Source: Escherichia coli
Lineage (GTDB): Bacteria > Pseudomonadota > Gammaproteobacteria > Enterobacterales > Enterobacteriaceae
NCBI RefSeq assembly: GCF_003334405.1
Contig: NZ_QOWM01000002.1
DNA length: 64,000 bases
Strand: one strand, 5' to 3'
Shown here: piece after piece, positions 22,914 to 24,041 of the stretch
How the letters are laid out: each line of letters begins with the position of its first letter
Numbering within the stretch: the first letter of the stretch is position 1
The notes under the pieces: model-generated
The model's input: the letters and a program-made list of their open reading frames with translations, nothing else
Told to the model about the DNA's origin: nothing
Databases searched by the model: none
Made by a program: the position numbers and the translations under genes

Positions 22914-24041
22914 TTAACGGCGTCTATAGCCTTCCTCTAGCACCGCCTGTGTTCGAACGAGTTCATCTGCGAGTCGTTTCTCATCAGGTAGTTGCATCTT
23001 ATATTCGCTTGCCAGAACGGTGTTAGGCAAACCTGCCAGAGCATAATGCGCTTCTCCGGCTCCTTTCTCTGCACAGAGAACCAGACCGATGGGCGGATTT
23101 TCATCCGGTAGCGTCCAGTGCTCTTTGGCGTAGTTGAGATACATATTCATCTGTCCGGCATCGCTATAGCTGAATTTGCCCACTTTTAGATCGACGATTA
23201 GCAGGCAGCGTAAATGGCGGTGGAAAAACAGCAGATCGACACGAAACCAGTTGTCATCAATGCGTAACCTTCGCTGCCGACCAACAAAGGCAAAATCATC
23301 CCCAAGTTCCAGCATGAAATCCATCAGGTGGTTGATCAGCGCCTCCTCAAAATCGGATTCTGAATATTCATCTTTCAATTCCAGAAATTCGAGCACAAAG
23401 GGATCGCGTATCGCCTGTTGCGGAAGAATATGCGTCTCGGCAGGAGCGTGTTGTTGCAGCATGGCTGATTTGTCATGTGACAGTAGTGTCCGCTCATAAA
23501 ACTGGGTCGCAATTTGCCGCTCTAGCTGGCGAACAGACCAGCCACAGCGGAGCGTCTCTTTTTCATAAAAGCTGCGGGCGTCAGCGTTTTTAACGGAAAG
23601 TAAACGGACGTAGGTGGACCTGGGCAAGGGGAAAGATTTGGCAGACAGCGTCTGCCAAATCTTTGCCGATGGGAATTCTGCAGACGGTGTCTGCGGAATT
23701 CCCAATGGTGTTAATTCGCCAGACATTGTCTGGCGAATTTCAACATGTTGAAAAAAGAGGTAAAAAAGCCTCATTTGGCGTAAGTTTTTTGCAGAGAACC
23801 CACGCTTATACCTTAGACATAAATCCTTTGATAGTCGCTTGATTAGCTGCGCACCATACGCAGCCCTGGCCTCGCCACCTTGTTCAAATTCGACAATTCG
23901 TCGGCCAATTTCCTGGTACGTCGCGGTCATTAACGCGTTAACGCTACGTACCGTTTCCGTCCGGGCGCTATCGACCAGATGAATAATACCGTCGTGGATT
24001 TGCTGGTAGCCTGCTGTGGTTCCTTCTGAGAGCGATTCCAT
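22914..24041 (-). CDS. yhcG: DUF1016 / PDDEXK-nuclease-family protein YhcG
   Basis: 375 aa; conserved DUF1016 N- and C-terminal blocks (…CGWSVRQLERQI…); contains an in-frame palindromic repeat segment. Confidence 0.85.
   Translation of the reverse strand: MESLSEGTTAGYQQIHDGIIHLVDSARTETVRSVNALMTATYQEIGRRIVEFEQGGEARAAYGAQLIKRLSKDLCLRYKRGFSAKNLRQMRLFYLFFQHVEIRQTMSGELTPLGIPQTPSAEFPSAKIWQTLSAKSFPLPRSTYVRLLSVKNADARSFYEKETLRCGWSVRQLERQIATQFYERTLLSHDKSAMLQQHAPAETHILPQQAIRDPFVLEFLELKDEYSESDFEEALINHLMDFMLELGDDFAFVGRQRRLRIDDNWFRVDLLFFHRHLRCLLIVDLKVGKFSYSDAGQMNMYLNYAKEHWTLPDENPPIGLVLCAEKGAGEAHYALAGLPNTVLASEYKMQLPDEKRLADELVRTQAVLEEGYRRR
23635..23739. repeat. Three tandem imperfect palindromes (27-33 bp each) of the GAATTC-CAGACA family, inside the yhcG reading frame
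   Basis: P1 GATTTGGCAGACAGCGTCTGCCAAATC, P2 GGGAATTCTGCAGACGGTGTCTGCGGAATTCCC, P3 AATTCGCCAGACATTGTCTGGCGAATT. Confidence 0.8.

Follow-up and report, generated by a model that had tools for sequence, protein, structure and literature searches.

An in-frame palindrome array in Escherichia coli yhcG and its counterparts across the DUF1016/YhcG nuclease family

Introduction

Short DNA palindromes have been described in bacterial genomes in several settings, and here we compare with these an array of three tandem palindromes that lies within the reading frame of yhcG, a gene of the DUF1016/YhcG nuclease family, in a 64,000-nucleotide stretch of Escherichia coli DNA (contig NZ_QOWM01000002.1 of assembly GCF_003334405.1; the whole stretch is called the window below). 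Similar in appearance are the repetitive extragenic palindromic (REP) sequences and bacterial interspersed mosaic elements (BIMEs). These are likewise short imperfect palindromes of ~25-35 nt that form stable hairpins, stand singly or in tandem, often past stop codons, show compensatory changes in their arms and act as rearrangement hot spots; two further copies near yhcG, palA and palB (Table 1), are REP-like in position as well. REPs, however, occur as hundreds of dispersed, untranslated intergenic copies and have an HUH transposase (RAYT) as their partner, whereas the yhcG element occupies one locus per genome, is read in frame and is tied to a PD-(D/E)XK nuclease family across phyla.

A second comparison is with the cis-acting stem-loops in coding sequences of phage, insertion sequence (IS) and toxin mRNAs, which share with the yhcG element a stable hairpin within an open reading frame (ORF), maintenance by synonymous or compensatory change and a potentially harmful product. 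The yhcG element differs in that no slippery site, internal start or terminator tract accompanies the palindromes, in its lack of G.U tolerance, and in a position that is fixed over the whole family and many phyla while the copy number varies. Intragenic operators such as lacO2 in lacZ (the ideal lac operator is AATTGTGAGCGCTCACAATT) offer the same order of AATT, arm, centre, arm and AATT within a coding region, with conserved symmetric positions; in yhcG, by contrast, the inner arms vary between copies and remain self-complementary, a partner site at the promoter is usually missing, and the binder is putative. Quasipalindromes are also subject to template-switch mutagenesis, for which Ripley proposed the model and whose E. 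coli hot spots were studied by Lovett and colleagues. Such switching accounts for Watson-Crick arms, for mirrored multi-base changes and for the instability of the array to deletion and duplication, but it is a mutational mechanism and not a function, and it leaves the family-wide codon position, the conserved centre and the outer AATT unexplained.

The yhcG gene is one of the six LSPA-6 typing loci of E. coli O157:H7 (PMC3514354, PMC8733641, PMC10893428), and the length polymorphism of its amplicon serves lineage typing (PMC3514354, PMC8733641). This marker is at the same locus as the palindrome array, but in these three papers yhcG is an anonymous length marker, with no mention of palindromes, of a 39-bp unit or of a family-wide presence. 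The MG1655 record has no repeat annotated within yhcG. In Rfam, in the MG1655 annotation and in the open-access papers on yhcG and DUF1016 that were searched, we found no description of the palindromic nature, the 39-bp unit, the family-wide covarying presence or the palindrome-bounded presence and absence of yhcG. The length polymorphism is thus already known as a typing marker, and the palindrome as a feature of the family seems not to have been described before. Our best explanation of the whole, which we rate at about an even chance of being right, is a family-wide palindrome conserved at the nucleotide level, triplicated in the window, that would also serve as a brake acting in cis.

Results and discussion

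Three palindromes in the yhcG reading frame

A repeat search found a 27-nt unit in three copies within yhcG (23635-23661, 23674-23700 and 23713-23739; successive starts 39 and 39 nt apart), each an inverted repeat in its own right whose arms, 13-18 nt long, enclose a centre of 1-3 nt. The arms of palindrome 1 (23713-23725/23727-23739) are 13 nt long and 100% complementary; those of palindrome 3 (23629-23646/23650-23667) are 18 nt long and 94% complementary, with a centre 27 nt upstream of codon 141. The ORF at 22914-24041 reads in frame through all three as ...EIRQTMSGELTPLGIPQTPSAEFPSAKIWQTLSAKSFPLPRSTYVRLL..., with every core translated as Q-T-x-S-A/G. The window of 64 kb contains the core CAGAC-NNN-GTCTG five times, where 0.03 are expected, and none of 100 shuffles reaches five. 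Folded as a 131-nt sense RNA, the region gives three separate hairpins at -67.6 kcal/mol, far below shuffled sequences (-27.7 ± 3.6 kcal/mol; z = -10.95). The first-pass annotation of this DNA had reported three in-frame palindromes and proposed folding the mRNA; its description and coordinates are correct, and so are its three arm pairs when read on the plus strand.

The units stand head to tail and their number differs between strains, which makes the array an in-frame variable-number tandem repeat. The units are merely 70-78% alike, and the duplication is therefore not recent. A perfect 16-nt palindrome, TTTCAACATGTTGAAA (23738-23753, encoding FQHVEI), abuts hairpin 1 on its mRNA 5' side; it is kept in the window and O157 alleles and altered in EM10, Salmonella and Citrobacter koseri.

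Presence across the DUF1016/YhcG family

A search of 1.84 billion representatives returned 21,194 representative clusters of DUF1016/YhcG relatives. A palindrome lies at the same place in nearly every DUF1016/YhcG gene examined (~55 loci, 28-97% identity, seven named phyla), and where a gene has a single copy, the palindrome is usually centred 18 nt ahead of the Trp codon in the LSWSHY motif. Among the closest 150 of the 21,194 relatives, the stretch before this motif holds zero to five short peptide repeats whose sequence varies with the lineage (QTxSA, YTVC, QPVA, HPLGAQ, ETVFS, DALRL and NTLSA among them); the DNA of distant loci shows that such repeats are translated palindromes. Almost all of 37 IMG/VR loci, at 28-60% identity, carry the palindrome 9-14 codons ahead of the Trp, and the loci L005 and L007 have arrays of 3-5 hairpins. 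It is likewise present in all eight plasmid genes, from Hymenobacter, Cetobacterium, Clostridium, Leptolyngbya, Rhodococcus, Curtobacterium, Legionella and Acidisarcina, being the strongest palindrome of its gene in seven of the eight and weak in the Rhodococcus copy. These eight plasmid records, on which the taxonomic breadth rests, represent Bacteroidota, Fusobacteriota, Bacillota, Cyanobacteriota, Actinomycetota, Pseudomonadota and Acidobacteriota. Four genes of a divergent QLPWGH subfamily have the palindrome too; the matches of this subfamily in viral contigs came from a four-member alignment, a single Legionella homolog having given none as query.

The position 18 nt before the Trp codon was fixed beforehand and chosen without regard to pairing. 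At this position at least seven of eight pairs form in 27 of 46 distinct genes, against a within-gene background mean of 2.1 of 8, and in the genes outside this set the distance from the centre to the Trp codon is 19, 24 or 27 nt, or there is an array. Trained on 32 sequences, a covariance model was run on 199 kb, comprising the whole window and 39 loci, and matched only the in-gene sites, held-out loci included, plus four special sites that are taken up below with the extra copies. The model can be used to detect the palindrome within DUF1016 genes, with weak scores on three of the four QLPWGH-type plasmid genes searched (L051-L053). Copy number is 1-3 in E. coli and its relatives and reaches ~5 elsewhere, and it has expanded repeatedly in separate lineages. 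The palindrome is, in short, a stem-loop element belonging to DUF1016/YhcG nuclease genes in general. The idea that the segment might be specific to one lineage does not hold, since at least one unit is kept in every enterobacterial ortholog examined and distant homologs have the palindrome; nor is the segment an ordinary linker, because the homologs carry it with its palindromic structure.

Constraint on the nucleic acid

Covariation was assessed in an ungapped alignment of 32 distinct 37-nt windows. Standard pairs fill 88.2% of the cells, against 66.9% with shuffled partners (0 of 500 shuffles reach 88.2%), and pairing falls to 23-39% when the partner is slid by 1-3 columns. Both sides of the pair have changed in 85 cells where 25 are expected (0 of 500 shuffles), compensatory changes affect 10 of the 13 pairs, and in several columns the Watson-Crick pair takes three or four forms. 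Among close orthologs, hairpin 1 has as its inner arm CGC/GCG in E. coli, GTG/CAC in EM10 and Pseudocitrobacter, CCG/CGG in Salmonella and CAG/gTG in C. koseri. What the first-pass annotation had noticed within the array, namely that symmetry is preserved through paired changes in both arms, is borne out by this covariation across the family.

Could the region be an ordinary low-complexity peptide repeat under protein-level selection, its palindromy incidental? A motif I-x-Q-T-x-S-x-E/K does recur in enterobacterial orthologs. Between lineages, however, the peptides differ entirely (QTVSG, NALRS, HALRD, YTLCS, SPLVR, ATLLR, ETVSR, QQPVG) while palindromy is kept, and no residues are conserved beyond those set by the centre, xCA then STG (T/A/P then L/V). 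Pairing is lost when synonymous codons are resampled by the gene's own usage, dropping from 9.6 to 5.3 of 11 (p <= 0.0135 in 34 of 36 loci). In one clade the reading frame through the palindrome is shifted: at L027, L029 and L030 the palindrome ATTCGCCAGACAGTGTCTGaCGAAT is read one base out of phase, as EFARQCLTN, and at L031 and L032 a palindrome with another arm sequence, ATTTGATACGCACTGCGTAACGAAT, is likewise read one base out of phase, as EFDTHCVTN. In addition, the region is predicted to be disordered, residues 97-140 of the AlphaFold model forming a coil between helices 84-96 and 141-148, with a predicted local distance difference test score below 50 for residues 103-132. Selection on the peptide is contradicted by these data and, in our judgement, hardly credible.

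Covariation, synonymous tuning, frame-shifted reading and the disordered loop therefore place the constraint on the nucleic acid, and the palindrome is kept at that level and not at the level of the peptide, as the first-pass annotation had argued. Its description of the segment as an interdomain linker stands as far as the linker goes; the loop is not interdomain but lies inside the Pfam DUF1016_N domain. With a disordered connector as its product, this part of the coding sequence can accommodate an embedded signal. On the structural model, the protein appears to need nothing but a connector at the palindrome, with DNA symmetry dictating what the connector is made of. The yhcG palindrome is thus a natural example of a noncoding signal within a disordered protein loop, and it calls for caution with protein alignments, which at the palindrome are shaped by DNA symmetry and not by protein function.

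Copy-number alleles in E. coli

The window allele is a three-copy tandem amplification of the intrinsic yhcG palindrome. O157:H7-type alleles are without exactly 78 bp, or two units, and have one palindrome left, EIRQTVSGELTPLPWSTY. In the one-copy alleles checked at the DNA level (O157), the copy retained is palindrome 1, which is also the one lined up with the first palindrome in the orthologs from Salmonella, C. koseri and Pseudocitrobacter. Among 120 close homologs we found alleles of one unit (349 aa), two units (362/370 aa) and three units (375/382 aa). The one-unit junctions differ (RQTMSGELTPL, RQTLSAKFSPL, RQTVSGESFPL and RQTVSAKSFPL), so that deletions must have occurred more than once and in different registers. 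The array explains the yhcG length alleles used in O157:H7 lineage typing; Yang et al. in 2004 reportedly described alleles of 394 and 472 bp, a difference equal to the 78 bp that separate one- and three-copy alleles. The multilocus variable-number tandem-repeat analysis locus CVN001 was ruled out as a known name for the repeat, having allele numbers of 6-7 against 1-3 copies here.

The first-pass annotation had proposed that a small palindromic repeat element had inserted in frame into the linker; it would then be a mobile repeat resembling a REP or a miniature inverted-repeat transposable element. The differing copy number of the alleles and the two extra copies in nearby intergenic DNA speak for such an origin. 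It is nonetheless contradicted by the genome searches and very improbable. Across 5,426 complete E. coli genomes, a 181-nt segment matched at yhcG only, at one or two places per genome, and a palB query matched at a median of two and a maximum of four places, all at the yhcG/gltD locus among the matches listed. Instead of a dispersed family there is one copy at the homologous codon in all relatives examined, and the palindrome is intrinsic across phyla. Searching Rfam with the region at E-values up to 10 returned noise only (best E = 0.14, an unrelated miRNA model), with no match to any curated REP-type family, and the element is accordingly not assigned to REPs or BIMEs.

Other repeat systems were considered and set aside. 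A CRISPR array was ruled out by gaps of 2-12 nt on a 39-nt period, by translation of the array in frame and by the lack of cas genes nearby, and the RNA repeats of type III (ToxIN-like) toxin-antitoxin systems, which stand apart from and upstream of an endoribonuclease toxin gene, by the position of the yhcG repeats inside an ORF, by the PD-(D/E)XK nuclease that the ORF encodes and by the mostly single copy. Xer/dif and attC sites do not fit a central spacer of 1-3 nt between near-perfect arms of 8-15 bp; dif has arms of ~11 bp on either side of 6-8 central bp, and attC, past a cassette, is an imperfect hairpin that has extrahelical bases.

Extra copies and rearrangements at the locus

The first of the extra copies, palA, lies ~15-40 nt past the yhcG stop codon and was found in all three E. 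coli alleles examined; in the EM10 allele it reads ATTCTCCAGAC...GTCTGGAGAAT, with a compensatory change. A search of a single locus each from Salmonella, C. koseri and Pseudocitrobacter did not find it. The second, palB, lies ~15 nt past the stop codon of gltD (30052-31470, minus strand), and its arms and those of palindrome 1 are identical; O157-type genomes, where yhcG directly follows gltD, do not have it, and in genomes without yhcG no other copy survives. Strain THO-003 has no yhcG, and its 67-bp gap between nanQ and gltD contains one perfect palindrome (L064, 2474-2540); to its left stands the sequence that flanks palA towards nanQ, and to its right the sequence that flanks palB towards gltD. 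The palindromes palA and palB thus mark the exact limits within which the 7.1-kb yhcG-yhcFEDA-gltF segment is either there or missing. In Salmonella, C. koseri and Pseudocitrobacter yhcG adjoins gltD, and in the latter two it adjoins nanQ as well; the position next to gltD looks ancestral in the enterobacteria examined, so the E. coli genomes without yhcG are likely deletions.

Table 1. Position of yhcG and of the palindromes in and near it (window coordinates; CM, covariance model).
Feature	Position	Strand or location	Sequence	Description	CM score (bits)
yhcG coding sequence	22914..24041	minus		375 aa; ORF list, Pfam, PADLOC, alignments	
Palindrome 1	23713..23739	minus	AATTCGCCAGACAATGTCTGGCGAATT	first in mRNA; 13-bp arms; encodes (E)IRQTMSGEL	37.7
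Palindrome 2	~23670..23704	minus	TGGGAATTCCGCAGACACCGTCTGCAGAATTCCCA	15 pairs, one C.A mismatch; encodes GIPQTPSAEFP	31.2
Palindrome 3	23629..23667	minus	GGCAAAGATTTGGCAGACGCTGTCTGCCAAATCTTTCCC	17 pairs; encodes AKIWQTLSAKSFP	34.2
Tandem array	23635..23739	minus		3 x 39 bp (13 codons); repeat search, allele comparison	
palA	22868..22904	yhcG-nanQ convergent spacer	ATTCTGCAGACAGTGTCTGCAGAAT	12-bp arms	38.3
palB	30006..30042	past gltD stop	ATTCGCCAGACACAGTCTGGCGAAT		30.6

Other rearrangements also have their end points here. In strain 88-3493 (L002, 1240-1760) yhcG is truncated right past hairpin 3 and joined to foreign DNA with a gene for a hypothetical protein of 101 aa, and in strain F5656C1 (L004, 2288-3058) an IS1 lies directly upstream of the remaining 3' part of yhcG, beside the array. 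The in-frame deletions of P0033 and P0037 end at palindromes. The EM10-type allele (L003, 2726-3838) differs from the window allele mainly in codons 83-135, with codons 78-97 diverged and near-identical flanks, and the diverged stretch matches the Pseudocitrobacter type (NLWQFK.FYICFQRIEIVQTLSAQF); this indicates a short conversion or mosaic tract centred on the palindromes. At the E. coli yhcG locus, then, the palindromes are recombination and deletion hot spots, points of breaking and rejoining.

Beyond E. coli, the promoters and flanks of the loci examined held no extra palindrome copies save at L025 and in a pseudogene fragment at L016. The L025 copy (1427-1461), the only promoter-proximal one, is a related palindrome, TGAACGCAGTGCGTTCA, between TTGTCA (a putative -35 element) and a TATTCA-like box (a putative -10 element), ~25 nt before the start. 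At L016 (1-240 and 294-1243; compare L015) two intact palindromes lie in a DUF1016 pseudogene fragment that has lost its C-terminus. The fragment is 1.3 kb upstream, with an insert of two genes between it and the intact gene, and its palindrome is better preserved than that of the intact gene.

The YhcG protein and its setting

The window YhcG has both Pfam domains of the family in order, DUF1016_N (PF17761; residues 19-184, E = 1.3e-36) and YhcG_C (PF06250; 208-360, E = 1.8e-56), the latter a PD-(D/E)XK nuclease domain, and it belongs to the family on this ground. At residue 141 the (L/P)(S/P)W(S/G)H motif has its conserved Trp, found in at least 90% of homologs and in O157, EM10 and Salmonella. 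The window allele reads PLPRSTY, with Arg at this residue (W141R, AGG at 23619-23621), and many K-12-type alleles have Arg141 as well. To judge by its sequence, YhcG with Arg141 is still a family member and may be impaired or not fully functional. NCBIfam and PDB sequence searches with YhcG gave no matches, so that sequence points to no solved relative. In fold, the C-terminal domain comes nearest to NucS/EndoMS, Bax1 and the nuclease domains of Can2/Card1, and an earlier analysis placed it near archaeal Holliday-junction resolvases and YraN (PMC1189080).

DUF1016/YhcG is a very large nuclease family associated with defence islands and mobile elements. In PADLOC the window protein matches the candidate defence system PDC-S02 (profile PDLC04807, E = 3.4e-131, residues 9-370), a representative of which was tested for phage protection in one preprint. 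The family is enriched beside phase-variable restriction-modification and BREX genes (PMC9881135) and is carried on conjugative elements (PMC4316617), and recombinase genes adjoin plasmid-borne DUF1016 copies. At L005 (1337-6889) the DUF1016 gene, with an array of 4-5 hairpins, stands between N6/N4 methyltransferase (Mod) and ResIII helicase/nuclease (Res) genes and looks embedded in a type III restriction-modification operon; genes for a HigB-like toxin and a helix-turn-helix/M78 peptidase protein lie upstream. Taken together, the PDC-S02 match, the restriction-modification setting of L005, the recombinases and the two published associations suggest a toxic nuclease.

Possible functions of the palindrome

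For such a nuclease, the most economical function of the palindrome is that of a cis-acting stem-loop limiting expression, a proposal that we make tentatively and that may well prove wrong. Within one strand, of the transcript or of DNA that is briefly unwound, the palindrome would fold into a stem-loop and would act in cis, by slowing elongation or by marking the mRNA for decay or termination. A single-gene nuclease that is potentially toxic and moves horizontally would in this way carry a portable, built-in brake on its own expression. Lying inside the ORF, the palindrome travels with the gene and is therefore not lost behind a new promoter, and additional copies would strengthen the braking effect. 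A scan for terminators and promoters over 22300-24400 found that none of the four palindromes there resembles either (palB, at 30006-30042, lies outside the scan), and an intrinsic terminator was ruled out at these four. The noncoding RNA G0-10703 opposite yhcG overlaps the 5' untranslated region and not the palindromes.

Several observations weigh against this brake. The stems of 32 anchor hairpins contain 306 Watson-Crick, 6 G.U, 12 A.C and 28 other pairs, and a looser set of 94 hairpins has 27 G.U against 42 A.C. The comparison of G.U with A.C mismatches, meant to reveal the transcribed strand, gave no asymmetry and no wobble signature on either strand, and the test therefore identifies no RNA strand. 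Such stems, with no tolerance of G.U, are unlike those of typical RNA families and would suit a constraint at the DNA level or a mechanism of mutation. Among the pair types GC<->CG flips are frequent, although compensation by single steps in RNA would not favour them. Symmetry and conservation mark both the outer AATT and the centre (CA-S-TG, or CAG-N-CTG in the QLPWGH subfamily), as they do in sites bound by protein dimers, and the L025 palindrome sits within a putative promoter. Finally, E. coli genomes without yhcG retain a perfect palindrome between nanQ and gltD, a copy that needs no gene. Intrastrand template switching in quasipalindromes also fits the strict Watson-Crick pattern, as it mirrors a change in one arm onto the other; it probably helped to keep the symmetry so strict, and it would wipe out a wobble signature even where a selected function resides in the RNA.

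A rival is a DNA-level site, in duplex form or as an extruded cruciform, that would be recognised by a putative YhcG dimer or a host factor. In one variant the site would serve autoregulation, as an operator or roadblock within the gene; in another it would be a structure-specific substrate of the NucS/Hjc-like nuclease domain and would promote breakage, gene conversion or the gain and loss of the cassette. The absence of wobble, the conserved symmetry of centre and AATT and the L025 promoter palindrome all argue in this direction, as do a nuclease domain near NucS/EndoMS, Bax1 and archaeal Holliday-junction resolvases (PMC1189080) and the E. coli end points at palindromes (the 78-bp deletions, L002, the IS1 of L004, P0033, P0037 and the yhcG-gltF segment). 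Yet the three copies within yhcG differ at the inner arm (CGC/GCG, CCG/CaG and TGG/CCA) and each remains self-complementary, which a dimer binding duplex DNA does not need; a second site in the promoter or flanks is missing at most loci; and the palindrome persists in genomes without YhcG. We regard a DNA-level site as possible, if on the unlikely side.

A more specific form of recognition would be a self-contained module, in which the YhcG product, resembling NucS and Holliday-junction resolvases, would recognise and, under some conditions, also cut the hairpin or cruciform of the very gene or transcript that encodes it. We consider this speculative and rather unlikely. If true, self-recognition would give autoregulation and, at the DNA level, would be the force behind the exact gains and losses and the modular recombination that the E. 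coli locus shows; the palindrome would then represent a new type of cis element within a gene, evolving across bacteria together with a family of nucleases associated with defence.

A neutral account needs no binder at all. The palindrome would then be an ancestral, functionless quasipalindrome in an unconstrained loop, its symmetry maintained by template switching, its arrays the product of replication slippage, and it would be retained only as the protein needs a loop of ~10 residues. The strict Watson-Crick pairing agrees with this account, as do adjacent blocks that change together in both arms (CGC->GTG->CCG), the unconstrained peptide, the instability of the locus in E. coli, and the perfect palindromes that persist at noncoding sites and in the L016 pseudogene fragment. 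It demands, however, that the palindrome persist at a single codon in at least seven phyla, among proteins with as little as 28% identity; templating leaves the conserved centre and the outer AATT unexplained; and palindromes are prone to deletion, and the loop could be kept without one. To our knowledge, conserved palindromes like that of yhcG are not a general feature of protein loops. We therefore think neutrality an unlikely answer and retain the cis-acting stem-loop as our working proposal. A nucleotide element held at one codon across at least seven phyla offers a testable handle on the control or movement of DUF1016 genes.

Neighbouring genes

In the window, as in K-12, a block of gltF, yhcA, yhcD, yhcE and yhcF (24226-29492) lies between gltD and yhcG. 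This block is missing in O157:H7, EM10-type genomes, C. koseri and Pseudocitrobacter, where yhcG comes directly after gltD (L001, 1057-1239), and the sequence right after the gltD stop codon is wholly different between the two arrangements. The window is thus like K-12, yet it is not MG1655, since yhcE within the block is an uninterrupted ORF in the window (24939-25490) and is split by IS5R in MG1655.

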